Assembly (NCBI GenBank): GCA_036172245.1
Contig: JAYWIR010000006.1
Coordinates: 5,642,001 to 5,706,000, forward strand
Source: Raillietiella orientalis
Taxonomy: Eukaryota
DNA length: 64,000 nt
Direction: 5' to 3'
Shown here: piece by piece, positions 6,501 to 64,000 of the stretch
How the letters are laid out: every line of letters begins with the position of its first letter
How positions within the stretch are numbered: the first letter of the stretch is position 1
Program-made: the position numbers and the translations under genes
The notes under the pieces: model-generated
What the model saw: only the letters and a program-made list of their open reading frames with translations
What the model was told of the DNA's origin: nothing
Databases searched by the model: none

Positions 6501-9500
6501 CCCCTCCCCTTCCTCTTTCTCGCTTCCCGGGAAATCTTCCTTCCGACACGAATCGCAGGTGCACGCGCCTTTCGGTTCGCCTCGGTGTTGCCGGGGGGGA
6601 AGGGGAGGGGGGGAGAGGGAGAGGAACAGCTCTCCCGAGTGGTTTGTTGCTGCTGCGGGGTGGTGCAAGCGAAAGCGTCTTGCGACAGTGTTTGTTGCTG
6701 CAGATACCTTTTCAAGTGTATGCAGTGTCAATCAGCGTGTCTGATATCGTGCCCAGGTGAACACCTGGGAAGAGGCAAGCAGTTTAAAACAGAAGCCGCG
6801 TCAAAACATGGGAAGACGAAATCCAAGAGAAAGCAGTTGGTTCCTTTCTTTCTTCCTCGCCCGCTCCTCCCTCCTGCTCGAAGGGAACACAGGAAAGGGA
6901 GACGGCAGATCGGGGAAAGACCTGCTGCTGCTACTGCTAGGCAGAGCCCCCGCCGAGGTGCTGCCGTTCGTTGCCCCCCACCCTACGTGCCGGGGCGGAA
7001 CTTCGAATTTTCGAACGTGAGCGCAGGTAAGCGCGGCACGAGAGAGAACCGTCGGCGGTGCTGCAGCCTGCTCCCCCTCCCCCTCTTCCAGCGACCTGTC
7101 CGCATCCCCGCGCAGTTGCTCCAGCCAAGCAAGGGCGGCAGCAATCGTAGGCGGCCACGCCGCCGCCGCTGCGCGTTCCATCCTCCGCGTCTGGCAGTCG
7201 TCCCCTCCCCTCCGCCCGGTCGAATTCCTCCCAGCTCTTTGCTTCTCTTCATTTCCATCTCCCCCCCCCCCCTATCCTTCTCCTCCCTCCATCCCCGAAC
7301 TACTGAAAGAAATGAAACCCACACAATCGTTATGAAGAGGGGTCGGAGTTCGGCGAAGAAGTTTACCCGTCTTCTCTCGTCTTCCTCGCCGAGGCATCCG
7401 GATCGAAAACTCGCGCTAAAACGTTCGGCCCTTCGAAAGCACTACGTCACCTCCAAGCAGCGCCGTGAATGACTGAGGGATGCTTTACGTTTATGCACCT
7501 TCGAGGAAGAATGCGAGGCTGAAGAAGCCATTGTTCCTCCTCCCCCCTTCCGACAAAAAGGAGAAAAAAAGAGAAAAAGAAAAAGTCGGTGGTGTCGTCA
7601 TCACTCTTTTCGTTTTAACAGGAATGGTGCAGAGGTCAGCTGAGCTTCTGGCGTCTTGGCGGAGGAGCGTGGTGGTGTTCGCGCGCGCGATCCACGCTGC
7701 AGGAGTGCGACAGGGGTGCACGCTGTTCGTGCACGCTGTCCGGCGTGAACACAGACACCCATCGGACACCGATTTTCGTTCTACACGGCGCTGTCGCGCG
7801 TAACGACGCTACGGACCGTTGCTTATTGAAGATCCACGGCGTTACCCGGTTGCTGAGCTACCTCCGCTTCGAGGCGATGTTGGTCACGATGAACATCCCT
7901 CCAGAGTGAGGCTCTATCATTGCACGGCGATTGGGCTGACCTCTGCGATAACGCCAAACGTGGGTTCCTCGGAAGCATCCTTTTTAGGCTGGGCGACTGC
8001 ATTCGCGCGTTCCGGATCGTTGAAGATCGTTGCGTGCGATGCGTTGAAGAGTGCAGTCGTCGTTTCGACAATACCTCCCTCCTCCCCCATCACATATTTG
8101 TATCTACCTATCATGTGAGAGAAATATATATCAGTAGGTGTGCACTGGATAAATTGGATGATGAGTGATGATGAAGGATATGCCCTTCATAGAGACGCTG
8201 GAGTCGCCCGTAGCCACAGCCCAGCGGGGGCTCCCTTAACCGGGGAGGAGGATTCAGCTGCAATCAAGGCACGGCTGCGTAGAGAATTCTTCGCGTTCCC
8301 TTGTGATTGGATCACAGCGTTTTCCTCCTCCCTTCCCTCGGGTTCAAGCGAGCAAGCGAGGACAGCGTGCCTCCGGTTTTGGAACAGAGAAAGCGTAATT
8401 GGGAAGGGGAAGGCCGAAGTTTTGTCCGGGGTCACCTCGGCTTCCTGAAGACATTCACCTTTTCCTTGAGTCTTCGGTAACTTTGTTTCAAGGGGTTCTT
8501 GTCTCCAGTGCTCTCCGTAGGCCGTTCCTTCGAGCCCTTTGACGATGACAAGAGCGGGATGATGCATCCAGGCAGCTCTGTACCGGTGAGTGCAGTGCAT
8601 CAATCAAGCAGTGCGCAGAATCGAAGGACGGCGCGACCGGTAGGGGCAAATCAACGGTTCAACGGGGTTCTCGAATGATTTGGGGGGACTTGGGGGTCGA
8701 GACCTGTCCTTTTTTTGCCTCGGGAGCGCTTGGAAGCACGAGGGAATGGCTGAAATGTACCCTGAAGAAGACGCGTTGTGTCCATCAAGGCTGGTCTCGG
8801 GCACATGACCTCAAGCAGAAAAAGACAAAGTGGAGGAAGAAGGGGAAGACCAAGGAGAAGGAGAGAAGGACGAAGAGGAAGCTCAATGCATATTGGGAAA
8901 AAATCTCACAAACAAAAATTTCACCTGGGCGAGCCGGAGTGTCGCTTTTGAGAAAAATAAATGGACAGTAGTCGGTGGGACAAGGTCCCATCAAGTCCGG
9001 CAACTCTTAGGGAAGCGCCGACGAGGTCCACAGCATCCATGGAGGGGGATAAAAGAAACGAAAAGAAAAAGATGAATGCATAAAATAAGAAGAAAAAAGC
9101 AGTCTCTGGAAAAAACCGTCTTCGCGAGTAGGAGGAAGAGGGAAAGACTCTCCAGCAAGTCCTGGGCTGAGATCCTCGTCTTCTCCTTCCCTCCCTTTTC
9201 CGCTGCCACGGGAGTGCACTGATGTATGCTCGGAGGGAAGCCTGGGTACCTGCCCCCAACATCTTCCCGTGCGAGTCCCCGACCAACGTCGGAAGAATGG
9301 TCCAGAGTGTCAGCGGTTCCGGAGGTACTTAGGGTTCGCGAATTCCGGCAGACCGGGATCTCCCTCTCGAGCAGGAGAACGGGGAAGGAGGGAGAGGAGA
9401 GGGCAGGTTTTCACGAAGAGAGCTCCGGACGAGCAAGACGCGGAGGATCAAGCCCGCCCGCTTTGCGCGTGGGAGCGACAGGCCGAGAGGCGCTGCTCTC

Positions 9501-12073
9501 TGGACACAAAAACACGGGAGGCTCGGAGCAAGGCAAGGCCGCATCCCTCGCGTCCAGGAAGATACTTCCCGGCAGGTATCCCCTCCAAAGGGAGCGCGCT
9601 CCTTTCCCTCTCTCCCTCCACTGCCTCACCAACGAGGGACTCACTCTGGCGATTCGCAGCCGTGGAAACGGGCAGCGCCGGATAGCCGGCACGGGATTCG
9701 TCCACGGATCCGGCTGGCGCGCCCCGTCTCGCATCCTGCTCGCAAGGAAGACGCCCATAACAGTCGGATCCCGTGACCTCCTCCCTCTCCTCCTCTTTCG
9801 TTCGCTCACCGCCAAGGCAGGCCGGGCCTCCGACGACCCATCCGTCTCCTTCTCCTCCCCCCCTCATCCTTCTCCCCCGATTGGCCGAAGACGGTGGCCT
9901 CTCCGTTGCCATGGCAGTCTCGGGGCCGCGAGCAATGGATGTCGTCGCCTTCGCGCTCAGGCAGCTTTCACTTTCCTCCGTGAGATGAGAGGAGGAAAAC
10001 AAAACGAAAACAACACAAAGAGGTCGTAAATTTCTCATGCAGCCGATTGTGTGCACACGGGCTAATTGAACGGGCAAACACGACCCCCGGGGCAAACACG
10101 AACGTCAGTCCGTTATTTGCAAGCAGTCGGCAGAAGACCAAGGGTGACGGTGGACCATAACGACGACGACGACGACTACCCGCGAGTGGAACTCAGCGTC
10201 GAGTCCCGCCGCCTTTCGTGATGCGGCAGATCCCCGCCCTCGCCGGGGAGCCGATCGGTGCTGAGGAGAGGTGTCCAAGCAACCGCTCCATCCTCTTCGC
10301 ACCAAACAGCGTATCGGCTTAGGCGGCGAGGCGGAAGCCAGGAGGCCCCAGGGGCGAGGAGCGAAATGCACCGTGCAGGCGGCGCTCCAGGGAGGATCCC
10401 CTCCCTTCTTCCTCTCCGTCGTCTGCTCGGGGAGGAAGCAGTCGGGGAGTCCCTCCCACAGTTTTGGTTGCTGCGGGCGGGACACTTCGGACCGGTGGCG
10501 AGGAGGCTCGAAGAGCCACTTCCCCTCGTCGGAGCTCCCGCACTGCACCGCCCCTCCCGCGTGGAAGTCCCGCGATCGACATCTCGGGAAGGGTGGAAGG
10601 GGGGGGGGAGAGAAAACGCTCATGGTGGTGAAGCTCGCGTATCGGTCGCCCCCCTCCGGCACCGCCGGATTAGCACTCGCGTTGCGAAGGAGAATTCAGC
10701 TGCTGGCACGCGCTTGCCCGTCCCACGGACCTGTGGGGAGTGGGGAGTGCCTGGGGGAGGGCGGCCGACACGCAGAGCAGCCCATAAGGCGGAAAGAGGA
10801 GAAGGAAGAGCGGACCCAGCCCGGGCGACCCGGGCTGCACTCCACGAAGAGACGCAGGGGGCGCTTGCCCACGGGGAGCTTCCGGTTCCGGACGCTGCGC
10901 TCGTCCTCGAGTTGGAGGTGCCCTCAGGCAGGCACGCCTTCTCGGTCGCCGCTTTCTCCTGGGGAACGGGGCGCACCACCTCGCCCCAGCGGAACCCGTG
11001 TCTCTGGGCAACGCTCGAGTCCGCCAGAGGGTGGGAGGGATTCGCGGGGCAGCAGCCGTCGCCGCTGCTGTGGGCTCAGCAGCAACGGGGAATGGGGTGT
11101 GTCGGCCAGAGGCTCGAAGGGAGCGCCCCTGGCGGAATGCGGGGCAACCTGCGGGGGCGCCAACCTTTTCACCCTCTCGCCCTCGCGGACGGGAAGGCAG
11201 AGGATCTATGGGCAGTGGGAACCCCAATTTCCCTTCTCGCCCGCGCGTCGGGATTGTGCCGGGGTGGTGGCATCCTCGCGCGTAAGCGGGGCTTGAGGGA
11301 GCGGGCGTGACCTCTCCGGAGTCAACCGTGTGCTTCTCCTTGTAGAACTCCATCCGGCACAACCTCTCCCTGCACACCCGGTTCATGCGCATCCCGAACG
11401 AGGGGACCGGGAAGTCGTCCTGGTGGGTACTGAACCCGGACGCGATCCCGGGGAAATCCACCCGCAGGCGGAGCTGCGCGGACGGCTCCAAGCTCGACAA
11501 GCGCCGCGGGCGCTTCCGCAAGAAAGAGGACCTCTTCCGCAACCCACTGCTCGCCGGCCCCTTCTTCGAGGACAAGTTCCGTGCGCGGCCCGGCCCACTG
11601 GGCGACGCGGCGGCGGCCCTAGCCTTCGCCGGTGGGGCGGCCCCGCACGACTTCAAGTACCGAGGACCCGCGGACGGCGGGACCCTGCCGTGTCCCCTGC
11701 AGAAACCGCCCGGCGGCGGTGGCGGGGGAGACTCCCCGTGGTCGGCGCATGCCCATCCCCTGCTGCCCCACTCGGACGGCGGGCCCAAGTGCCCCGTGTG
11801 GAGCCCCGTGGTCGTCGCGGGAGGTGGCGCCTCTCCGGCCGACAGGATGCAGCGGCCCTTCCCGGAGCTGCCCTACGACGACCCCGGAGGTGGTGGTGGC
11901 GGTGGTGGTAGCGAATTCCCCGACAGCAAGTTCGGCAGCGGCCAGCAGCAGCAGCAGCAGCCTCTGCAGCCCCCCACGGACCGGCACGCGGCAGCCGCGG
12001 CTGCGGCCGCTGCGGCGGCCGCTGCCGCCGCCGCCTACGCCGCCGAGTTCGCCTCCTTCCCCGGCTACTCGCC

Positions 12074-12105
<32 letters not shown>

Positions 12106-12487
12106 GCGCAGGCGTCCTCCAGGAGGATGCGGGTCTTCAGCCTCTGTACCAGCCGGGAGACATTTCCGGCCTGCAGCAGTGCTACTTCATCCCGGGATGC
12201 TGTATCCAGGTGAGTGTGTTCTCCTTCTCCTCCTCCTCCTCCCCCCACCCCACCCCCTCGCGTACCTCCCGGCAGCCCGCTCTGACGTGCGCGCCCCCCC
12301 AGCAGAACTCCAGGAAGGCCGCCGCCAGGGGCCTCGACGACCCGACGGCCCCTCCCCTGACGGGACACTACCCCACGGACCACTGCGGGATGCTCCTGGG
12401 GGCTCAGCACCCCTTCTACTACGGTGGCGGCGGAGACGCCTGCAGGCCCGGCGACAAGGGGAAGCTCCCGCCCCAGTGCCCCCCGGC

Positions 12488-12522
<35 letters not shown>

Positions 12523-12737
12523 GGGCCGTCGCTCCCTCCTCCGTCCTGCCCAAATGCCTGCAGCGTTTCGACGGCGGGGATAAGGGAGGCTCGGCCCCCT
12601 CCGCGCAGGAGGCGGCGGGGGGAGATCTGGCCTACCACCACCTCCCGGCCAGGGGCTCCTGCGTCTTCATGCAGCCCGAGGCAACCTCCTTCGGCTGCGC
12701 CCTACCCCAGTGGATTACCAGCAAGTCCCCCTACTGA
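654..12737 (+). CDS. foxo: Forkhead box O (FoxO-family) transcription factor, divergent; 2-3 coding exons
   Basis: Exon 1 is 654-1169 (gccATGg ... [55 protein letters not shown]|gtaaga). The intron is 1170-11345. Exon 2 starts at 11346 (tgtag|[32 protein letters not shown]). The GDSNS insertion and the WK/NS intron position are FoxO hallmarks. A probable 93/96-nt in-frame intron lies at 12210-12302/12305; stop TGA at 12735-12737. About 603 aa spliced, 635 aa if that intron is retained. The start codon is inferred, since the frame is open upstream. Confidence 0.95.
801..842 (+). repeat. (CAC)n coding repeat, 14 consecutive His in the FoxO N-terminus
   Basis: Direct reading of 801-842. FoxO exons 2/3 also carry CAG poly-Gln and GCN poly-Ala tracts. 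Confidence 0.95.
3487..3541. repeat. Compound (CT)n(GT)n microsatellite in FoxO intron 1
   Basis: tctctc...tgtgtg directly visible. Confidence 0.9.
5437..5488. repeat. (GAG)n(GAAG)n microsatellite
   Basis: gaggaggaggaggaaggaaggaagg... directly visible. Confidence 0.9.
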
Positions 12738-47663: not shown

Positions 47664-50600
47664 ATGATAGATGACTGTGAAGAACATGATTGGGAGGAAG
47701 AACATGATCCAGATGTGAGATAATTGGATTTTCACTTTTTGATCGCTTAAAGTGTATTAAGGGGAAGAGAAATAAATCTGCATAATTTAAACAGCCATGT
47801 TGTAACTAAGCTAAGTTAGTATGGATTACCATACTCTATCGTAGAATTTCTTTATTTGCCTAATCAGAAAGGATACCTTATGAGGTAGCTATGCGTATAC
47901 CGGGAATAAGAACCAAAAAAAAAAAATTCCATTTATAATTTTCTCTGTAATGGGCCAAAAGACTGATCAAGTTATTTCAATTTTTAGTCACCAATTTGTG
48001 AACTGAGAAATCATGAAAATCCTCAAGATGTTTTACAAGAATGTCTGGAAAAATTCACCAGCCAGGATTTTATTATGGAACCAGGCATCTTCAATCAGTT
48101 AAAACGGTATGAATGTGCATTTTAAGTGCTCTTCCACCATAGAGTGCATTATGTCATTAGTTTGTTTATTTTTTTTAAAGGAATTCCAATTCATTTATTC
48201 TTGAAAATGCTGGCTGAGCTGTTTTTGTATATGTGTATGACTTTTGCAAAGGCTTTTACGGCTTCTCTGCTTGCAGCAGGCAAGCACAGGAGATCAAATG
48301 AAGAAACAATGAAGTGTGCTTTGAAAGAAAAAGATCATACATGTATTAAATTCCCAAATGTGCAAATGGAGTTCTGATGTTAAGCAAATTCTTTATTTGT
48401 GGTAATTTGATAGATTAATGCATGCATTGGAGTGTTTTAATGAGATGAGTTACCAATTATCACTCCATTTTTCAAATATCCTTGTCCTTCAGAAGCTTGA
48501 TTTTGAACAAAAATATCAAAAATTGGTGTTCAGAAAACTTTTTTCTAGTGAGAAAAGCAATACTGACTGTCAATAGTTAGCAGTAGTAATGCATTATTGT
48601 TGATGCATTAATTCTTCACTTTAGCATTTAACTGAAGAGTCAGTTAATTATTGATGAACACAATTTCTGTTAGATGCTCTTTGGTTGCTATAGAAAAATT
48701 TTCAAACTATTGGATGAGTTAAAAGGGCAGAATGGAAATTACATGTACAGATGGTAGAGGGATGATTAATGATTGAAGCATATAAAAGCAGTCAAAGCTG
48801 TTACTCAAACTGGTACAGAATTTTAATGTGATTTCTGCAGAGAGTTGACCCTGTAAAATTAACAAGAAATAGTCACGTATAAAGTAACTTTATAAGTTTG
48901 ATTCACATACTGATCAATAATTATACCCACTGATGAATATAACTCTTAATTTAATAGAACCTTAAAATCAATCGAGTCATTTCCACTGACCATGATTTGT
49001 AGTTAATGAACTGCAGTTATGCTCTCCATAAGGTTTTCATTTCCTTTAAATTATGTATGAGAAATTGTAGTGTATCTCTGTCTAGTGATACTTCCATGTT
49101 CTGGTATCTTACAGACATGTTGCAAATTCATAATATATGAAAACTCAATTTGTCAGTGGTAGAAACATTTATGTGTTAGTTCTCACTAGTGTTGATGGTG
49201 TTTTTGATCTGAGCCACATCCAAGTGAGTGATAGGTTTGCTTTCCAAATTAATATTTGCTTTGGAACTGAGAATTCATCAAGGAGATAATAATAGAATTT
49301 GACTGTTTCTTGCTGCAGCAGTATGTGTAAGTTTTGCAAGTGGATGTTAGTTTTTCTTCAGAGTTGTGTTGGATGTTGCAACCCGTCATGCAAAAAACTT
49401 GAAGAGATTGCTATAAGTTTTAAATTTTTTTCATGATCATATGATACTTGGGTAACTATCATTGGTGTGATTTCCATTGTTTTCTTTTTGTTTCACTTTG
49501 TTCAAAATAATATCACTTGTTTTAGCAGTTATAAATAACAATGCTATGCTCTCTCCTTGTTGATTTCCGATATAATACTCAATCACATTAAAATGCTTAA
49601 TTCATCATTGAACACTTGCCTGTCTTCTGTTGCTGTTTATTATTTTTTGAAAATTTAGTGATTTAAGTATATCTGCCCTGCAAGATTTATTATTTATGAA
49701 TTAGTTAACAAGTAAGGTGCAGCTTGTGGTGCTTTAACACTACTGTTAAAACATAGCTTAAACTGTTGTAGAATCCATGACTGTGTTTCTTGTGCCCTGA
49801 CTTTTGTAGCTCTTATTTATTAGTTTTTGCCTTTTTCTCAAATTCATTTATTCTTGAAAATCGTTTTTCATACGTTTTTAGATTTTATAACATGGTATTC
49901 TAAAGTATTCTGAAGGTGCATGTTTTTTTACAGTAGTTTGCCCCCACATGTATTTTATTTTTTGTGCTGCTATATTTAGGTTACAGCAGAAATTGAGAGA
50001 TTGTCCTTGGATTTTAAAATACTCTAAGTGTGAAGGAGTTTTAAACATGAAAGACTTTGTTTACTTTATGAATAGTGGTGAAGAAATTACAATGGGATTA
50101 GAAAATTGATTTGGTATCATGTTTTGCTGTTGCCTCACAAAAGCCATCTTTGCATGATTCCATCTGCAGTGTACAGGAAGATGAATGTTTCAATATACAC
50201 CAGGAACATCCGATATATTTGCCTTTCTGGTTGCAGTTCTTGCCCCAAATTTTAGAGGGAAAATATGGAATAATTCCTATTTTTCTCAATTTAAAGCACT
50301 GATACATTGATTGTGTAAAGACTAGGCAATTTTGAAAGAATGTTCAATTGCTTAAGGGAAAAAAATGGCCCATAATAAATCACTGTCCTAATGCATCATA
50401 AGTGTGATGATTACAAATACCAGATTCAAATGTCAGCTTTCTAACCAATGTAATTATGATTTTTTAATTTTGAAATTGTTAATTGGCTGAAATTGTTAAC
50501 TGCTTGAATCTGATTTGAATTCAAGTGCTCAGCATAAATAAAAGTCCAATAAGGGACCATGAGCATTGTCGTCAAAGCACACCCCAAAATCCCCTCAATC

Positions 50601-53600
50601 AAAATAACATGGTTTTTTACTTTTTGTTTCAGGTATTTTCAAGCTGGAGGGAATCCTGAACAAGTAATTGATTTGCTTTCTTCAAACTATACTGCAGTTG
50701 CTCAGATGGCAAACTTACTAGCAGAATGGCTTATTCTAGCAGGTACAGTACATGATGAGCAATTGACAGTAAAAGCATATACACTATGAAGTGGTTTACT
50801 ATGTTTCAAAGACATTGCTTCTACAATACTTCGGTTGTTTTGTATAGAACAAGTCTGCATTGCAGTTAAATACAGGAATGCTTACAGCATGGGGTCCTTG
50901 TGTGTTTGGTATTCATGTCCTTGTTCACTTTTACTTGTATCAAGGTGGAGTTGGTTTCCATGAAATTGGTGTTGAATTCTGTGGTGAGGTAAAGTTTGTT
51001 TCATTTACTTAGAATCTGTTTCACCAAATGTCGAGCATGGTGAGATGTGTGCTTCATTTTTGTGATCGTTTGTGGTAATGCATTGATCTCATGTGGATTG
51101 TCCTTCATTTTTAACATTTTGGGTCATTTTCAATTTTCTCAGATAAAGCTGAAGTAAAATGTCACTCAAAACGTCTTTACTCTCGTACTTGCTTGACACA
51201 CTCCCCATCATCCTATGTTTAATTGGGTAATGTTGAGACAGCATCTCATAATTCTGTCTTGCAAAGGCCCACACAATTTAAGTTAAGCCATGAGTTTCTG
51301 TTTGTTAGTAAATGGCGTTTGTTAAAATCAGATTTGATGTTTCCATATAAGAAAACAGAAACATTGTGCAGTATTTGAAGTAGAGGTATCTTTAAATTTC
51401 TATATAATTTATTGAGCAGAAATTTACAGATGCACAATTTATTGTGAGTGCAGTAAATATAGTTTCTAGTTTAAGAGTAAAAGAAATTTCTCAACGCCTT
51501 TAGCATATTTCATTTTATTTTTTCTAGTGTTTTTGGCAATCATTCTTTAATTATTCACAGATTCTGCAGCATGAAAGTATAGGGTATCAGAATGCAACTG
51601 GCTATGCATCATTGTGTTGTGCATATTAATCTATAGTATACAAATAAAATACAGTGCATTTGAAAATTTTTCATAATAAAACTAAATTAGATGTAATAGA
51701 GAATGTGGATGCTGTGTATAATTGTTTGATAGTAACCCAATTTTTCATAGATTTCATACTTTTTATAATCTCATAGTTGTATGAAAAAACTTGAAAAAGT
51801 AGTAATAGTAGTAATAATAATAGTAATAGTATCTGAGATGAAAGTATATTTTCATTATTTGGATTCATGCGATAACATATTTTAATACTGCTGTGCATAT
51901 GTATTCCTGCATTTTCGCCCTTCAGTATTGTATTTCATCCTTGGAACCTGAATTTTCATTAAGGTGGAAGCCCAAAGCATAAAATATGAAATGTGGAAGT
52001 TGTTTCTTCTGAATTGCAGAATTTACGGAGTCATTTTTTTTTACAATAAGAGTATTTGCTTAGGTACTGGTATCCAAGAAGTACAGACAATGGTGGAAGA
52101 TCATTTGAAGCAAATGATCCTACGCATTTTCGATCCAAAAAAGGCAGACACTATCTTCACGGAAGAAGGAGAGGTGAAACCGGAGTTTGTGAATAGTCAG
52201 TTATTGAATGAATTTTGCAGACACCCTCATGGTTGACCGAGCTTATCGAGCACAACACATGGCGGTCTTTGATTTATAAATTGGCCGAAGACTATCCTGA
52301 CTGCCTTATGTTGAATTTCACTATCAAAGTGAGTTGATATCGGACTGGTTTTCGATGTGAAAATGGCAGCTTATTTCCGACGCAGGTTTCCAAGGGGAAA
52401 TCACTAGTGTATCCACTGCCGCCCAACAGATTGAAGTGTTTTCCAGAGTTCTGAAAACTTCAATAGTCAGTTTCCTCCAACACACAGGGCAAGAACGTAC
52501 CAGGCATCTCAATGAGTTGGTGGTAAGTTAGTATGGTCTCCATAATGGCAGTGACATTCTGGTTTTCATCCCAGAAAATGGTTTGCCATGGACAGCACAC
52601 GTTCATTTACACGCAAGTCCTTCTGTACAATCTCTTTCAGGAGGGTAAGGGCGCACCAATAATGAGGAGGCTGTCTCAAGAAATCTGCAAATATGCAATC
52701 GAGCAGTAGGTGCCTCTTTGGTCTAAAGGATACTAAAATTTTAGCAGAGGTTACGATGTTACAGTCGTTACCATGGCCCTCAACAACACTGCGGCATTTC
52801 CTCGTGCAGCTCAAGCCTTAACATCTATGCTGTCTCGAAATGCCTTGAACCCTGCAGATATCACTGTACTGTACAAATTGTATTCGTCTTCGGAACCTCC
52901 CCCAGTGGAGATGATAAGAAATCCTCAGTTTCTGAGTGCGTATTTCCCGACTTAGTTGCCTCAGACGTATTCTATCGCAGATCTGCTTGTGGATGTGCTA
53001 TTCAAGCCTGGAATGAAGCTGAATCCAGAACACAAGCCCAAGTACATCTTCCTGCTGGCATATGCAGCCAGTGTGAATGAACTGGCTCGCAAAGGGGCCC
53101 ACCGCACCTTGAACAAGGATGAACTTAAGAACACAGTGCAAGCCCTGGAGAAGGTGCATAATGTCTGCTGCAGCAACAAGACATCCACGGAGCTCCTGGC
53201 CGAGCTTGCATCATTGTACCACTGCATTCGTTTTCCGGTTGTTTCCGTGGGAGTGGTGCATTGGGTTGAGGCCACTGTCACAGAACCCAGCTACTTCAAG
53301 TTGTGTGTTGAACACACCCCTCTGCATTTGGCATTGCTGGACGAGGTTGTCACGTGCCATCCATCATTGCATGATGACGTCCTGAAGCTGCTGATGCAAT
53401 TGTTTGAGTCTCAGCAGGATGAGCTGGAAATCTTAGTGCAGGTTGGTTTGCTCAGATTACCATATATCCATGGAGAGATCCCCTGGGTTCTGTTTACAGC
53501 TTGAATTGAGAAAGATGTTTCTGGATCGAATGGTCAACCTGCTCAGCCGTGGCTGTGTTGTCCCTGTTGTCCAGTACATCAAACAGTGCTGGCAGAAACA

Positions 53601-53852
53601 GGACACTGACGTATCCTTGATACGTTACTTTGTGATGGAGGTTTTGGACGTGATCGCCCCGCCATATTCTTCGGAGTTCGTCCAGCTGTTCCTACCCATG
53701 GTAGAGAACGAAGAAATCACAGGCAGCATGCGTGCTGAAGGGGAGAATGACCCTGTCTCTGAATTCATTGGTAGGATAGGTGACTCGTAATTATTCTTGC
53801 CATGTGTGATTTCCTAGTTCACTGCAAGGCCAATTACATAGTGATGGCTTGA
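47664..53852 (+). CDS. NELFCD: Negative elongation factor C/D (TH1-like), 11 exons, ~578 aa
   Basis: Exons 47664-47714, 47988-48106, 50633-50742, 52064-52173, 52221-52328, 52370-52522, 52575-52705, 52748-52935, 52981-53441, 53500-53770, 53818-53852. Motifs [83 protein letters not shown] and [21 protein letters not shown] are TH1/NELF-D. Exon 1 is the least certain. Confidence 0.95.
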
Positions 53853-55429: not shown

Positions 55430-57862
55430 TCGATTTTTGACGTTTTCATGCGACTTTGGGTGCAGAACATGGCTGCTGTGGATAACTGTGTTTTATGGGT
55501 TCATTTGAGAAGGTTCTCTCATTTGAGCTTTGATTTTTGCAAAGACCTCGAGGCAAAACAGTGTTCAAAATGCATTTTTCAGTAATCTGCTGTTCGGGGA
55601 ATACGAACACGGTGATAGAATAGTAAGGACGAAATAGCAGTCCAAAAGAGTGTGCAAAACTGCAGGAATTTTATTACAAGGTGTTTCCCTATGTGGTTTC
55701 ACAAGGGATCGAATTATTTCTGCTGGCAACATCAGACGGCGTACTTTCGCGCGGAGACTTTTTCTACGGTTTTCTGTGAAATGCCTTCAATCCGGTGGTG
55801 CCACGCTGTGAATAAGTAACGCCCCATTACCCGCATTCTCGTGTTTTCGGGGATCTGTGCTTCTGGTGGAATTCACGAATGCTCGTTCCGTCCTATTTGC
55901 TGATTACCGTGGAAGTTCGAGATCTCATTTTGAACCGACTCTCACTGCTGGAACGGCGCCTCTTTCAGCTGCAGAGGCTGCACGATGGAACTGCAGCCTG
56001 CGGGGCCGAGTTAAGAGGATCGGACCGTGTCCGATCACAAGGAGACTGCTTGCCGTTGCAATGCGCCCCCAAATCTAAAGGATCATAATTCACGAGGTTT
56101 TCTCCATTCCACGCTTTGCGATCAGGCTTGAAAAACAAGGATACCGTAGGGAAACGACAGAATTTTAGACAATCTCCCTGGGAGTCTGTCCTTTTTTGAA
56201 CCCTTTTTTGAACAAGCCATCCCAGTCTTGAGAATTTTTTTTTTTCTTCGAAGCCATTGCGCATTTTCTTCTGTTTCTTTCTTAGTGCTTTTGATTCACA
56301 GATCGCTCGTTTTAATGGTGCTCATCCGTAAACAGCGGGAAGGCGTTTCACGGGTTCTTTTCCAAACGACTTGAAGTTTCATGAAAATCACTGTTTGCTG
56401 GAGTTCGATTTCAGTCTCGAGGGTCACGCAAACGCTCACTGCATTAACGTCCTCCCAGGTTTGGTTGCATTACTCTATGTTTGCAGCATTTTCACTTTGA
56501 CACCTCACATCTTTCCAGTGAATCCTAATGCCATCAATAATCGTGGAAGCTTCGTTTTAAAATACGACCTGCTCAGGGAACAGGAATGCCAACTTGCTGT
56601 TTTATCTTACTTTTTTTTTTTTACACCCGGGTGCGCCGGGGCGTTTATCTTACTGGTTACTTCTGCAAGCTCCCGGATCGGTCCTGTCTTCATCAGATAG
56701 CAAACTGAATGGATTTGAAAAGACAGTCATTACTTTATGATTTTAGAATGGCCTTTTAGATGCCCTTTTGCGATCAAAGGTGGAACGCTGCTCTGCCATC
56801 GTATTGTGTGTTTCCCCACATTTATTTCAGAACGAGCAGCTTTTCGATTTGGGACTTTGAAACTGAATGAGCGTCCGGGGTGAAACGGACCATCAACCTT
56901 TCTGGAAATCTGCACACAGCATAACGTCAGCAGCCTCCAGCACGGCTCCGGACTCATTAGCATGCATTGAATTTACAGTTTCCTAGTTTTGAGCGACCAA
57001 CCTCCGTGGGTGGGTCGTGTGCCTCCCCTCCCCCCACTTTTGTTTTGGGCTTCAGAGCGTGCGATTAAGAAAGGTGTACGTTCTTCATTCGGTGGCAAAT
57101 AGCTGTTTCTTGTCCACGAATCGACTCGTTTCGTGCACAACTCGGGCATGCAATAACGAACCGATGTCCATCACATTGGGGGGCTCATCTTGCCCGGTAC
57201 TGTCTAAATTTGTTGAGCACCGTGAAGCCAGACGAAAGCTTTAAAATTTCACCCGATGTTTAACGTACCCTTTTCCTGAGCAAATTAGCCAGAATTAGAC
57301 AAATTAGACAAATTTTTTTTTTTTTCTTCACGAGGTGCGATTCAGTCAGAGCTGCGATTTTTGATGGTGTCGACACCATCGTCATTGCATTTCGAAGTAC
57401 CCCTTTTGCCATTTTCTTCACACGAAAAGTTGGACAGCATCCCGAGCTCGGTTTCTTGCATGATCATTCCTGCATGCTGAACTCTGCCCTCCCGGAGTCG
57501 TCTCCTTCACCCCTTCGGGACGACGTCAACCACATGCAGAATGTGGAATGTTGTCCATCCTGCACACCTTCACCCACAAGTACTTGCAGTCAGCATTCAA
57601 TTAGCCATCAGCTTTGTTCCAGGCGTATGGAACTCGAATCTTGTTGCTGGAATGAAATTGCCAAGTCTTCTGCGTCACATCCTCCCACCCGTTGCATTTC
57701 ATGGTGATCTTTTCCAGGAGAACCCTCAGCAGATTTTTAGCTTCCCCATCGCCTGAATCTGCTGAGAGGTGCAACCTCCAGTCCTGGGGGAAGGGGACCC
57801 ACAAACGGCGATAGGGTGCATGCAAACATAAGCTGTGAAAGGGTCGTCATCGGTTGAAAACG

Positions 57863-60800
57863 ATGCTTTTGAGCTTTTTGTTGTTGCTGTGGTGGCAGTT
57901 TTTTGTCAGTGGCGTAAGAACTGCTGTTGACATTGCCAGTTTAGAGGAGCATGTGAAAGAATCTTTGAAAACTGATCAAGCTATCCATTGTCAGTACCAG
58001 GACTATGTGAGTACAGTGAATCCCTTATTGGTTTTTTTTTGTTTCTAATTAGATTTTCTCTAACTGAGTATAAATTGCAAATATGTTTTGTGGAGAATTA
58101 GAGAACTAGGGAGAAAAAATTGCATCATTCTGGAAGGCATGTATGTATTTGTGCATCTATTTGGATGTGATTGCAGCTGGATTGGAATCCTTCTCCAAGC
58201 ACATCTCATTATGTGAAGCTAGAGTGTCAGGAAGGTACTAGCCATCAAGACACTAAGGAGGAATATGAACTTGATCATGCATCACTTATGATTGTTTGTG
58301 AAGTTCCTGCACCTGGAAGTTCAGGCTTGCAAATCTCCAAATATGCCAAGAACAACATTACTTGTGAAATAAAGGAAATGGTTAATAAAAGAGTCAAAGC
58401 ACAGTCTCCTTGTTTGGGTTGCCCTCATAAGTTAGATCCAAATCTTCCTGAACTTAAGAAACTTGCAGACCATGGAATCAAATTGCTTGTTGAAAAATAT
58501 GGCAAAAAAACTGATGTTGTGCTTATTAGAATACTGAATGCAAGTTTGGAAGTTACCAACAGAGTGGTATATCATATGACAACGCAACTGTTGATGGTAC
58601 ATCACAATAGTGACAATTCGTTTGTTGCATCACAAATCATCTGTACATTCATGTTTCCTAAAAAATCACCTGCAACTTTTGCGAATTGTAGTTTCAAATG
58701 TTACAAAAATTGGGACCATTTTAAAAATTATGAATTTGTAGAAGTTGATCCTCTTGAACACACAGATTTGGTCCAAGAAGCATGGAGAACCTTTCAGCCC
58801 CACGCACTTCGTGTACAAAGTGTTCATAGGAATGTAATGTTTATCACATTTGTCGGTTGTTAATTGAATGTGTTTGATTTCAGAAAAGTTCAGATGGAAC
58901 TACGTACTATCGCGTTTCATTTGCTGATCGTATTGCAAAACAGAGTTGTCATTTAGAATTATATCAAGTTAACAATAGGACTGAGCTACATGAAGCCATT
59001 TGTCAACCAGATTACAATGATTGGGACATATGTTTTATTTCGTTAAATCTTGAATATCAATCAGTTTCCAAGCACATGCAAGGAATCACTCAGTTACTGC
59101 TGGAAAACTTTCCAGAATATCAATTGATTTGCATTCATACGGCAAAGATGCTGTCCAGAAAAGTGAGTAAATATTCTGTTCTGTTCCACATTTCTGTCTT
59201 TTAGTTTCATTCTAAAAATAATCTTTATCATCTGGAGGTTGTGGTTAGGTCTAATTCAAGTTTGGAAGTTGAGGTAAGGGATGCTGACAGCTTTTCCCTT
59301 TATTGATTTCTGTTAAAGTCTTGTAGTGTCTTGTTAGCCTACAACAGTAGTGCTACTTCAATACTCTTGTTGGAATGGATTTGTAGGAATGATTCCGAAC
59401 TCAAGTGTAGGGATAGCTCATTGCTTGGTTTAGTAAAAAATGCACTTGCACATATCAATTCTCTAAGGTCACTTGACCAGGCTTATGGTTTCACTGATAT
59501 TTTGTGGACCAGGACACAGAAGGCAATGCAATTTTTGCAGCTTGATCAATGCATGTGTTGTTTAGTCCAGCAACCAAACTGCCATAGGCGTAAGGCTAAA
59601 GCCAATTTGTCTGAATGACCACAAGTGTGGGGATCAGGAAACCATCTGTGAGATGCAAGTGAATTCTGACAATCACTTGAGCTCTTTGACTTGTGGGCTG
59701 GAAACCGAGCTAGATTTTGGTGATCCAGGAGAGCATCAAAGTTTGTTTGTAATCAGTTCAGGAAGACAGCTGAGCGAAAAGTTTATTCAAAGAGTGGCAA
59801 ATACAGTGGTAGATCAAATGAATAGTCGGCTTGAGCCACGGTTTCGCATAGCTATCCAAAGGATATTGGAATGCGAATATTTGGTGAGCATATTTTTTGA
59901 GGATGTGTTCACTTGTGAGCCCATGGGCATAGATGGAGGAACTTTTATTCCTGCTTATTGAAGTAAAACCCTGGTCCTGTGACGCCCCTTGCATTGGAGG
60001 GATGGTGAGCAAAAGGCTTGCATGGGGTTGTGCACTGTTCTGTTTCAGAGAGAGTGTCAGATCTATGCAAGGCTGCAGGTTCATTGGCAGGGTGTCAGAC
60101 AATATAACTGCAGTTCTGGGGTGAGCACGAGTTGTGAGAGTCTGGTCACTAGTTTTTAGGATGGACCACCTTGGATTCTCGACCAAGCATTTCACGAGTT
60201 TTCCGAAAAACATAACAAAAGATACAAGACTTTGAGGATCTTGGAGGAGAGGCACCGTATTTTCCGTGAAAACCTCGAGTACATCCGAGAGCTGAATGAG
60301 AATGACCGGGGCACGGCAAAGTATGGAGTCAACCAATTTGCTGACATGACTCGTGAGCATGAGCGTCTCTTTCACAAATCCGCCACCGCATGTGTTACGG
60401 TCCTTTAAGGAGGTGAATTTAGGAGGAGTCACACAGGACATATTCCCGCCAAGCACGGGTTCAAACTGCATCGTTTGGAAATCCCCGAAACGATTTCTGT
60501 ACCCTACAGCTTTGACTGGCGCCACCATGATGTACTGAATCCTGTGAAAGATCAGGTTGGCTGACGGGGAAAACCCAAGCACGTAGCTACTCTGGAGTTC
60601 TCCGCAGCGTGGCTGTGCTTCGAGCTGGGCATTCACAGCAGTTGCGAACGTGGAAAGTCACTGGGCCCTGTACAGAGGAGAACTTTTGTCCCTGTCCGAA
60701 CAGCGTAGGACGTGCTCCGAGAAAAGGCTGTCTAGTCTCTTGCAGAACTGATAGATTGCTCTTCACCCGGCGATGGCTGCCTAGGAGGTAGCATAGAAAG

Positions 60801-61392
60801 CGCTTACCAAGCAATCTGGACCGGGGGCTTGCACCTGGACTCGGATTACCCGTACTCGGGCAAAAATGGAAGATGCGACATGCAGATCAATAAGACGCGC
60901 GTCAATGTGATGAAGTTCCTGAAGGTACCAGCACACGAAACTGTAATGGCGTGGTATGTGGCGCAGTTTGGGCCGATGTCTGTTGGGATCAACAGCAATG
61001 CGATGATGGTGAGTTCGAAGTGGTGGCGTTATGCGGCGTCTTCATCGGTTCATAAGTTCTATCTCGGCGGTGTATCTAGTCCACCGCGGAGGCTTTGCCC
61101 TTACCGTGACCGGGACTATGCTGCGCTGGTTGTTGGTTTCGGAACTCAACGTGAGTGGGACGGGGAAGCCGACGCTCGCTCCCAGCAGGCTGTTTTTCAG
61201 GCGAAGGCGAACGGGACGTGCCGTTCTGGGTTGTCAGAGGCAGTTGGGGTGCTTCCTGGGGTGAGCAGGTGAGTACTTCCTGTTCTCCTGAAGGGCTCGG
61301 GAGCTCAGGTCATCCAGGGCTACTTCCGCCTGTACCGAGGCAACGACACATGCGGCATCCGTTGGATGGCGTCGTCGGCGTTCATCGAATGA
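57863..61392 (+). CDS. Secreted multi-cystatin-domain cathepsin F-like (papain C1A) protein, predicted catalytically inactive; 15 exons, ~916 aa
   Basis: Exons 57863-58006, 58177-58833, 58884-59162, 59205-59273, 59319-59522, 59566-59883, 59933-60004, 60049-60120, 60160-60352, 60410-60555, 60608-60704, 60746-61008, 61057-61150, 61201-61268, 61318-61392. Signal peptide MLLSFLLLLWWQFFVSG; cystatin-like CLGCPHKLDPNLPELKKLA; I29 prodomain ERHRIFRENLEYIRELN..GTAKYGVNQFADMT; mature domain FDWR..VKDQRGCASSWAF, LSEQQLIDC, GCLGG, YPY, GPMSVGIN, WGEQGYFRLYRGNDTCGI. Confidence 0.92.
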
Positions 61393-61545
61393 GGCCACGT
61401 GACCGCAGCACGCTTTGCAGCAGCGCACCTCCGCGCAGGGATGGTGCTCGACGGTGTCCACGTCATGCTTTCGCCGCTGGTTAGCAGCTTGTAGGCGTGC
61501 TTGAGATAACGGACATCACTTGAGGCGTTCCCCACGAGCGAGTCC

Positions 61546-61551
61546 AATAAA
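61546..61551 (+). terminator. Candidate polyadenylation signal AATAAA for the cathepsin-like gene
   Basis: AATAAA ~150 nt after the stop codon, in otherwise GC-rich sequence. Confidence 0.55.
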
Positions 61552-64000
61552 CTGGCGTTTTGTAGGCATACCTCGAAGGCGAAGGAGGTCTTTTCTTTCC
61601 CGTTCCTGCAAGCAGCCGTCGGGTCGCGTGGGCAGAGCTTTCCTCGTCCGTCCTGAGGAGGCATGCAGCAGCAGCAGCAACCAGGGCGGCACCGTCGGGG
61701 GTTGCCCCGGATTCGTTCCCGCGGTCGGGAGGATCATGGGCTCCGTGCACTCCGGGGCGCCGGCAGCGCCGCGGAACGTTCGGGAGTCGCCGGCGGAAGA
61801 CGAGCGGACGCGATCCTCCCTCCCGGGTTCCAGTTTTGCGGGCCTTTCCATTCGGCCGAGCGAGGAGCCGGCGACACATGTCACCTGTTCCCTCTCACCC
61901 CTTGGCGCGGCGGCGCTGCCAGGGGCGCGTGTGTTAGAGGGTCGACTTTCGCCCTGATTGGATAGGGGGACCCAGCGTTATGAGCCCGCCCGTCCTTCCG
62001 TTCGGGTGGGCGAGCGCTGCCCCGCCAGCGCCGCCTGCGGCAGCTCACCCCCAGGTCACTCCATGGCGTTTCCTGTGCACCTCTTCTGCCAGGGACCGCC
62101 TCCTGCTCTTCCCGCGAACGACCGTGAGGCGTTATCTTTCGGAAGGTCGGAGGGAGGGGGCGCGGACAAGCGGTCCACCCTCTCCCGGAAGGGAGGGCGT
62201 CCTCCTTCCCTGCGCCGCTAGCGGGCCTCCAGGCAGGGGTGCAGTGCAGGGGCCACACGGGAGAGGGGGGGTTCACATGCGACTGTACACCGCCTTCCCG
62301 GCTGGCTTGCCTCCTGTGTGTGGGGTGTCTCCCGGACGTCACGTTTCCTGGTCCGAAGGCGCCTGCGGCCACGGCGCACCCGTGCTGCCGTACCGTGGGA
62401 TTTCGGTGAACCGCAGCACGGGAAGGGGAGCAGCCGGCCGGCGGAGACGGACACCCCCCGTCCTCCGTGCCGCCCCTGTGCCACCCCGAATGGATCGCAG
62501 CGCTCCTTGCGTTGCCGCGCCGCGCCCGCCCGCTCGCTTTGTCATCTCCGGCGGCGCGGCGGCGCCGTCTCGAGCGACTGCGTCCCGGGAAAGGCGCGAG
62601 CGAAGCACCTGGCAACCGTGACACCCCCGCGCAGAGCGTCTCCCGGTGGAAAGAAGCCGCTGGGGTGATTCATGGCCCCAACTCCCTTCTTCGCGGTTCC
62701 GGGAACGCAACCGCGCGGTCCCATACGTTATCCCGGAACAAACATTAAAATCCCATAAAACCCATTAACCTGCCTCTCCCCTTCCTTCCCCATCCCCCGC
62801 CCCTTCACCAGCGCGCGCGCGTGATGCCGCCGACCTCCTCCGCTGCTGCCTCCGAGGTCCAAAGACGCGCAGTGCGCGCATCCGTCCGCCCGCGGTGTTG
62901 CTGAGGCCGCGACAGACCCCGGAGCTTCGACCATTCCTGGCGTCCTTGGCCGACTTCGGAGAGCGCCCCTTTGTCGGCTGTCTGCCGCGGCCCACGGGCG
63001 AATGCCGGCCGCCAGCCATCCGTCCCCGCGGAGTGTTCGCCCCCACGAGGGGCACTCCTTTGGGGAGCGCCTTTCCTCAAAGGAACGCGACTCGGCCGCA
63101 GCACGGTGGCTGGCGCCGTCGCTCCTCTCCGCCCAGGTGCCAGCGAGCTCCGATTGCAGGAATGACGGAGGCGCACGCGTCCGCAGGAGCAGGGAAGGAA
63201 CACATCTCATCTTCTCCCCCTTCCCTGTTGGGGGCGTCCCGGAAAGGCGTTGGTGTCCTCCAACCCCTGACCTTCCTCTTCCTGCCTGGGACGCCTCCCT
63301 CCAAGAGGACCGGCCGCTCCCGAAGGTCGGCCTGCACGCGCGCGCGGAACTGGAATTCCCGGAAGCAGAGTGCGTCACCCGGGAAATCGTTCCTTCCCGT
63401 CGAGCTCCTGGCCGACTCCCACGCAGCAGCGCATTCCACCTAACTGGAGGTGGGTCCGCGGCTCCCGAGATTGCAGAAAGGGGGGCAGTTGCTGCCTCCG
63501 TGGGAAGGTCCTCCTTCCTCCTCGCTGGGGGGCCTTGCGACATTTTCCTGCAGACGGGAGGGGACGTTGGAGCTGCACTTTGACGAGGAGCCACCCTCTG
63601 CACCCCCCTTTCGCTGGCCCTCAGAACGCGCGCACAGATCCCGGTTTTCCAAGCTGCAGCAGGCGGGCTTCCGCCTTCCACCCCCACTTCCCTTCCCCTT
63701 CCTTCCTCTCTCTCCGCTTCCCGACTGGAGCTCCCTCTTTCGTGGGAGCGGGGAAGTGAAAACCTTCGGCGGAAGAGCGGGAGCTTCCACTTCCCCCTTC
63801 GCCTGCGCGCCGCCGATTCGAGGCGAACGTCCGACCGCCCACGGAGGGCGGGCGCGCGCCCCGGCGTCTGCTCCCGTTGGTTTGCGGCGCCGTCCTCGCC
63901 CGCCGGTTGGCTGGGGACGTTCCTTCCCCAGCGGGAGGTTTTCCCCCGCGGGATGCTGGAGGCGGGCCGGCGGGGAAACCCCCAGCGAGAGGGCGCGGAA

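Follow-up and report, generated by a model that had tools for sequence, protein, structure and literature searches.

The 64,000-nucleotide (nt) stretch of Raillietiella orientalis DNA analysed here (contig JAYWIR010000006.1, positions 5,642,001 to 5,706,000; hereafter the window, in whose own numbering all positions are given) carries on its plus strand, at 57863-61392, a predicted 15-exon gene of cathepsin F type in which all three residues of the papain catalytic triad are substituted (Table 1). Joining the exons by their coordinates gave a coding sequence (CDS) of 2724 nt and 907 codons with no internal stop, while the other two frames held 48 and 69 stops, respectively. All 14 introns have GT-AG borders, 13 of them being 39-70 nt long and one 170 nt, and the start ATG is preceded by an in-frame TGA 27 nt upstream. 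An earlier note on this DNA had described an unbroken 15-exon frame, and the joined model bears this out.

Table 1. Features of the window (aa, amino acids of the predicted product; ORF, open reading frame; i-E, independent E-value)
Feature	Position	Strand	Content	Basis
Exon 1	57863-58006	+	signal-peptide-like start MLLSFLLLLWWQFFVSG...	hydrophobic N-terminus judged by eye
Exon 2	58177-58833	+	aa 49-267; single detectable cystatin-like domain (aa 129-202, ~58417-58638)	
Exon 3	58884-59162	+	aa 268-360; without Pfam family	
Exon 4	59205-59273	+	aa 361-383	
Exon 5	59319-59589	+	aa 384-473; weak cystatin-helix-like stretch, aa 411-451	i-E 0.015, not significant
Exon 6	59660-59914	+	aa 474-558; weak cystatin-helix-like stretch, aa 513-546	i-E 0.13, not significant
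Exon 7	59964-60004	+	aa 559-572	
Exon 8	60049-60120	+	aa 573-596	
Exon 9	60160-60352	+	I29 propeptide inhibitor domain	PF08246, E 3.8e-15, 56.4 bits
Exon 10	60410-60555	+	propeptide end and mature start (VPYSFDWR from ~60499); last residue oxyanion Gln, Q709	
Exon 11	60608-60704	+	nucleophile motif RGCASSWAF	PF00112, 5.2e-06
Exon 12	60746-61008	+	central C1 domain with 3/6 structural cysteines and Gly-Gly pair	PF00112, 1.8e-13
Exon 13	61057-61150	+	His motif RDYAALVVGFG	alignment to relatives
Exon 14	61201-61268	+	Asn motif FWVVRGSWG	PF00112, 5.7e-04, 20.5 bits
Exon 15	61318-61392	+	C-terminal strand, last structural Cys, stop codon	
Codon AGC	60623-60625	+	Ser715 replacing catalytic Cys25	column Cys in 86/91 relatives
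Codon TAT	61117-61119	+	Tyr850 replacing catalytic His159	column His in 90/91 relatives
Codon GGC	61239-61241	+	Gly874 replacing catalytic Asn175	column Asn in 90/91 relatives
Stop codon TGA	61390-61392	+	end of CDS	
Possible polyadenylation signal AATAAA	61546-61551	+	154 nt past the stop	pattern only
NELF-D/TH1 gene	48015-53846	+		Pfam TH1 1.9e-70 on one exon
Long forkhead ORF	11346-12734	+	C-terminal half of domain at its start	Pfam Forkhead 27.0 bits, at cut-off
Full-length U1 spliceosomal RNA gene	7858-8016	+		Rfam RF00003, 76.4 bits, E 3.9e-17

The junctions 60555/60608, 61008/61057 and 61150/61201, which the earlier note had singled out for confirmation, were each found to be GT-AG and to keep the frame, and the product predicted across them is collinear with its relatives. 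At the first of these, exon 10 ends before gttggc and exon 11 starts after ccgcag. The spliced product could be aligned with relatives over every exon junction, the sole irregularity being a two-residue gap in a variable loop at residues 860/861 (exon 13/14), where no alternative GT or AG able to fill the two residues was found. One DNA run gave five records, of which two are unlike the window and three are short contig pieces identical to it at 57788-58021, 58927-59077 and 59256-59406 (exons 1, 3 and 4/5); the protease part lies outside these pieces, the stretch 59476-61600 being free of contigs.

Pfam scans were run exon by exon, with the protease part represented by seven short exon pieces. 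The papain-fold mature domain was recovered piecewise, with exons 11, 12 and 14 matching Peptidase_C1 (PF00112) at profile positions 23-53, 55-145 and 178-197 with 27.1, 51.5 and 20.5 bits, respectively, the last of these lying just under the cut-off of 20.7. Together with the I29 match on exon 9, this is the outcome of the Pfam alignment that had been proposed as a check on the gene. Three of the seven pieces, from exons 10, 13 and 15 (48, 31 and 24 aa; too short to score), had no Pfam match. Exon 12 matched 105 distinct PDB sequences, human cathepsin F (1m6d) ranking first with 8e-11 and a cathepsin-silicatein chimera (2vhs) also being among the matches.

A HMMER search with exon 12 over 1.84 billion representative sequences returned 851 proteins at E <= 0.001 and 72 at E <= 1e-10, with none at E <= 1e-30; no relative exceeded 47% identity to exon 12, and no close ortholog was found in the libraries searched. 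Exon 2 and exon 12 were also used as queries in word-index searches of longer proteins and retrieved no match, which by the nature of the method is weak evidence. When the spliced model was compared by blastp with the 150 best library hits, the best relatives showed 42-45% identity over ~306 aa, the top three being P0033 (45.2% over 312 aa), P0006 (45.1% over 306 aa) and P0010 (45.0% over 309 aa). The best alignments span the propeptide and the mature domain and lie at the C-terminal end of proteins of 800-2900 aa; the N-terminal 596 aa of the model gave no alignment to any of the 150 hits. An alignment to the model was obtained for 149 of the 150, and the 91 whose best alignment covered at least 270 aa were kept as relatives, the other 58 being dropped as fragments or partial matches.

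The closest relatives share a Pfam layout of cystatin (two to seven significant stretches), I29 and C1. Given this layout and the top PDB match to human cathepsin F, the window gene is assigned from its sequence to the cathepsin F type, in agreement with what the earlier note had proposed. Five library proteins (P0001, P0002, P0005, P0015 and P0046) that rank among the top hits carry two full I29 and C1 units in tandem, within a single protein of ~680-730 aa. A quick maximum-likelihood tree of 92 rows placed the model, for which no sister was supported, within a set of 77 rows (Shimodaira-Hasegawa-like approximate likelihood ratio, SH-aLRT, 88, not starred); as the rows are unnamed, the clade was identified by architecture only. 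The propeptide reads R-x3-F-x2-N-x3-I-x3-N, lacking the leading Glu, and thus departs from ERFNAQ, the form of this motif in cathepsin F; several arthropod relatives deviate likewise. No second C1 gene was detected in the window by tblastn with the domains of the 91 relatives and the model, whose matches were confined to 60160-61389.

Inspection of the active-site columns revealed the three substitutions at exactly the codons where they had been claimed. Spliced exons 10 and 11 read ...VKDQ-RGCASSWAF across the junction (hyphen), with Ser in the nucleophile slot, and exon 13 reads ...RDRDYAALVVGFG, with Tyr (TAT) in the His slot; exon 14 supplies Gly in the Asn slot. An intact Cys-His-Asn triad is present in 84 of the 91 relatives, and the other seven each lack one residue only: Cys is replaced by Ser in P0019 and P0015 and by Gly in P0075 and P0120 and falls in a gap in P0126, His is changed to Arg in P0127, and Asn to Cys in P0059. 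The window gene is the only sequence in the alignment without all three. The oxyanion Gln19, which is Gln in 88/91 relatives, is kept as Gln709, so that among the four residues of an active C1A peptidase (Cys25, His159, Asn175 and Gln19) this one alone remains. The oxyanion Gln, the structural cysteines and the prodomain, all of which had been described as retained, are indeed in place. From the three substitutions, the product is by sequence a non-peptidase homolog that would be unable to use the papain Cys-His pair.

Two of the exceptions, P0019 (Ser) and P0075 (Gly), pair as short-branched sisters in a different clade, one composed of very long multi-cystatin proteins; this arrangement suggests that the nucleophile Cys was lost there independently, in a change that appears to be conserved. 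As P0015 and P0120 are also without this Cys, dead cathepsin F-like proteins are probably more widespread than the window gene.

For a site-class test, the model was compared with the consensus of the 91 relatives, with the columns binned by conservation. It matched the consensus in 40 of the 45 columns conserved to 95% or more, in 37 of 53 at 80-95%, in 41 of 94 at 50-80% and in 19 of 117 below 50%. The same graded profile was seen in divergent relatives with an intact triad, with matching fractions over the four classes of 0.91/0.83/0.42/0.21 for P0050, 0.91/0.79/0.35/0.21 for P0138 and 0.98/0.69/0.32/0.15 for P0137. Since neutral drift on such a branch would lose conserved and variable columns alike, the graded retention suggests that the fold has been under selection. 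All six structural cysteines are kept (712, 746, 753, 785, 843 and 895; columns Cys in 92-100% of the 91 relatives), as are the Gly-Gly pair and the Ser-Trp-Gly motif.

The five near-invariant columns that were lost are Cys25, His159, Asn175, Gly23 (now Ala) and one Val, now Leu. The chance that five losses drawn from 45 columns include the three triad columns is 861/1,221,759, or 7e-4; what is unusual is which near-invariant columns were lost, rather than how many. Among columns conserved to at least 90%, ten differences were counted, with 6 in the 14 columns no more than three residues from the triad as against 4 in the 57 elsewhere (Fisher p = 0.0028).

Neutral decay was considered at the level of the CDS, in which 4.9% of single-base changes create a stop; for each unit of per-site divergence, 134 stops would be expected. 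The observed triad requires four base changes within nine bases. Under neutrality, the joint chance of hitting all three triad codons without gaining a stop is highest at 2% divergence, where it reaches 1.4e-5. This value is an upper bound, as the calculation takes no account of indels, of splice sites or of the Asn codon needing two changes. From the site-class retention, the identity of the lost columns and this bound, it appears reasonably supported that purifying selection maintained frame and fold but no longer constrained the active site, which would make the product a pseudoenzyme and not the relic of a decaying pseudogene. The earlier proposal of a non-catalytic protein kept under selection is in line with all three.

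The N-terminal region was less well defined. Exon 2 gave a Pfam Cystatin match (E 0.0015, 19.2 bits) that lies under the cut-off of 22.2, and the six other N-terminal exon pieces gave nothing credible in Pfam. A hidden Markov model (HMM) built from the cystatin domains of the relatives, with 337 domain hits in its last round, scored aa 129-185 at 20.8 bits; three more stretches had i-E values of 0.015-0.53 and were not significant. The multi-cystatin scaffold described in the earlier note is therefore visible in part, as one putative cystatin-like domain, the further repeats falling short of significance. In this one domain, the inhibitory QxVxG loop (aligned to QvvaG) is replaced by EVTNR. 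The leads for exon 2 in the ESM Atlas were cystatin, monellin and kininogen clusters at 0.76-0.78, below 0.9 and too low to count, and a single-sequence fold of the exon was unusable, with a mean predicted local distance difference test (pLDDT) score of 36.9. Proteolysis and cystatin-type inhibition, the two activities classically expected of such a precursor, thus both look lost from a gene whose frame is open.

A retained signal peptide had also been claimed; the N-terminus is hydrophobic and signal-like, as judged by eye rather than by a predictor. With 11 N-x-S/T sequons counted in the model by script, this signal-like start suggests that the product enters the secretory or lysosomal route.

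A steep compositional gradient runs along the gene. Exon GC content rises from 0.32-0.41 in exons 2-6 to 0.52-0.65 in exons 11-15, and intron GC content from 0.30 to 0.64. On its 3' side, the gene adjoins a low-complexity flank of 68-72% GC between 61.4 and 64 kilobases (kb); the 64-kb window overall ranges from 32% to 72% GC. The climb resembles the effect of a sharp bias in mutation or conversion acting on this region, and is unusual for an arthropod.

Elsewhere in the window, the NELF-D/TH1 gene lies directly upstream of the cathepsin gene and has introns of 1.3-2.5 kb, compared with 39-70 nt in the latter. Its best named relatives are insect sequences with 71-73% identity, those of chelicerates, a centipede, springtails and a barnacle reaching 62-68%. 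Judged from the sequence, the DNA would be that of an arthropod, probably from a poorly sampled insect group. A NELF-D match annotated as contamination of a sturgeon assembly was rejected as a pointer to the origin of the DNA, being a vertebrate-like protein that contains an internal duplication and shares only 45-66% identity with the window. The long forkhead ORF, which we take to be FOXO-like, is set in DNA of 68% GC. A stop-free antisense ORF of 299 aa (59758-60657, minus strand), which spans exons 6-11 and five introns, was rejected as a gene; its triplets run in phase with sense exons 6, 8, 9 and 10, and it is therefore probably a by-product of codon usage.

Taken together, we consider it likely that the window gene encodes a selected pseudoprotease of the cathepsin F branch, in which catalysis was lost, the fold was kept and the protein would act by binding. 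By inference from the family, a zymogen without the nucleophile would be unable to activate itself and would either stay in its pro-form or be trimmed by another protease. It would then act by binding and not by cutting, for which the fluke protein TrCB1.6 and the scabies-mite SMIPP-Cs discussed below provide precedent, and the most likely mode, by the same analogy, would be that of a ligand- or inhibitor-binding protein, or of a decoy, acting through a remodelled cleft. The cleft differs from that of the relatives in several places: Gly20 is changed to Arg, Gly23 to Ala, the Ala aligned with residue 133 to Ser, and a mostly-Leu position two residues before the catalytic His to Arg. These changes argue against a simple substrate trap, and the ligand of the cleft may be other than a canonical peptide, if it binds any at all.

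Several observations count against a selected, binding pseudoprotease. The end branch of the model measures 1.35 changes per column, as against a median of 0.36, and leads to no supported sister, which could reflect relaxed constraint or compositional drive. Composition itself shifts: along the gene, GC at third codon positions (GC3) climbs from 0.26 to 0.80, and the protease part consists to 0.29 of Gly, Ala, Arg and Pro, compared with a median of 0.23 in the relatives, so part of the protein divergence may be compositional. With the triad excluded, the excess of near-site differences is 3/11 vs 4/57 and no longer significant (p = 0.078), and at least five near-invariant columns are lost in 9 of the 91 relatives as well, so that the number of losses as such is not unusual. 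Selection is argued here from one sequence against distant relatives, and the junctions from sequence and homology, the gene being known here from DNA alone. The changes lining the S2 pocket could just as well indicate a cleft that has ceased to bind peptides, and the binding or decoy mechanism is drawn by analogy only.

A further-reaching form of the pseudoprotease reading would make the gene the organism's own cathepsin F ortholog and not a spare paralog, that is, a doubly dead precursor with a new non-proteolytic role, for example, as a secreted binding or carrier protein. We regard this as improbable, albeit worth stating; if true, an arthropod lineage would do without cathepsin F activity altogether.

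Slightly less probable again is that the gene is a recently inactivated, unselected pseudogene that has yet to acquire a stop, a frameshift or a splice defect. The long end branch, the want of a close ortholog among the 1.84 billion representatives, the N-terminal 596 aa without a detectable relative and the knowledge of the gene from DNA alone would all fit such a history. It would, however, have to accommodate four triad base changes alongside an intact 2724-nt frame and 14 pairs of splice sites, at a joint chance no greater than the bound given above, as well as the retention of 38 of the 40 remaining near-invariant columns (triad and Gly23 set aside) and of the six structural cysteines. 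The AT-rich N-terminal exons, moreover, are open despite an off-frame stop density of 5-8% per codon.

We give still less credence to the idea that the N-terminal cystatin-like region is the working part, with the dead protease domain serving as a handle for folding, sorting or processing. Cathepsin F relatives with up to seven or more cystatin domains before the protease, as well as a hemipteran cathepsin F described with four serial cystatin-like domains in the available text of PMC12653315, lend it some plausibility, as does the 596-aa N-terminal frame being open in AT-rich DNA. Set against this are the single detectable cystatin-like domain, with EVTNR at its inhibitory loop, and a protease domain that is conserved like that of working enzymes, beyond the need of a mere handle.

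Silicatein, mammalian testin and TINAG-type homologs are papain-fold proteins with Ser at the nucleophile position, and silicatein, which keeps His and Asn, is catalytic. A hydrolase using Ser at position 25 with another base, either in the manner of silicatein or via migrated residues, was weighed for the window gene, where the replacing Ser is a possible nucleophile and the oxyanion Gln is kept, as is the Trp of SWG. Unlike in silicatein, both His159 (now Tyr) and Asn175 (now Gly) are gone, leaving no general base at the canonical place. Gly23 beside the nucleophile has become Ala and Gly20 Arg, and inspection of the alignment revealed no alternative His among the conserved positions of the cleft. 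With both His and Asn lost, serine-based catalysis would be very unlikely; the earlier note, too, had called it unlikely. Least probable of all is an assembly artefact, or one allele or copy beside a functional locus with Cys-His-Asn: the contig pieces of the DNA run do cover other parts of the gene and not the three codons, but those three pieces are identical to the window, the changes involve four bases in three codons on three exons, and they are accompanied by coherent changes nearby (G20R, G23A, V to A two residues past the His and K to R before the Asn), a pattern unlike sequencing error.

In its layout, the predicted pseudoprotease resembles human cathepsin F (1m6d) and the multi-cystatin precursors of insects, having a signal-like start, a putative, degenerate cystatin-like region, I29 and a C-terminal papain-fold domain; this multi-cystatin architecture has been described in an insect (PMC12653315, available sections). 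It differs from cathepsin F in the replaced triad, in an identity of ~45% at most and in the one detectable cystatin-like domain. According to the accessible portions of two insect surveys (PMC4336737, PMC12653315), the single cathepsin F of each species covered keeps Gln-Cys-His-Asn, unlike the window gene. No description of a dead cathepsin F was found in open-access papers and preprints, which were mostly screened as listings.

Inactive C1A homologs as such are already well known among cathepsins L and B and the SMIPP-Cs, and in this respect the finding is incremental and not surprising. The scabies-mite SMIPP-Cs have Ser for Cys together with Gln or Leu for His; they are expressed in the gut of the mite and, in the part of the source available, are not treated as pseudogenes (PMC5956821). 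The window gene is like them an arthropod C1A homolog with Cys changed to Ser and His replaced. The SMIPP-Cs differ in being multicopy paralogs of the group 1 allergen (Der p 1-like) without a cystatin-like N-terminus, whereas the window gene belongs to the cathepsin F type, is alone among C1 genes in the 64 kb and has lost Asn too.

Among the insects, the available text of PMC4336737 lists cathepsin L and B homologs of Tribolium and Tenebrio with QSHN, ESHN or QAHN in place of Gln-Cys-His-Asn, or with Cys to Ser and His to Thr; one substitution pattern is common to both beetles and hence predates their split. In a cathepsin L of the reduviid bug Sycanus, Cys is replaced by Ser and His by Arg (PMC12653315, available sections). 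As far as the same partial texts go, these inactive homologs are expressed gut or venom-gland transcripts (PMC4336737, PMC12653315).

The fluke Trichobilharzia regenti has two highly transcribed cathepsin B1 paralogs without the nucleophile, TrCB1.5 and TrCB1.6. In the accessible text of PMC7054455, TrCB1.6 is not self-processing and is trimmed by other proteases, and its processed form complexes chicken cystatin. Unlike the window gene, both belong to the cathepsin B type and differ at Cys alone, which is Gly, with His and Asn kept, and activity was restored by one back-change (PMC7054455, same text); this would not be expected in the window gene, where three residues are gone.

Dead papain-family homologs thus recur in arthropods and parasites, some of them having gained roles in binding, for example to sequester inhibitors or to interfere with host cascades. 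With the window gene, the pattern would reach the cathepsin F branch as well, and in its fullest form, the loss of all three triad residues; the gene would also offer a clean single-sequence case of an active site dismantled selectively in a preserved fold.

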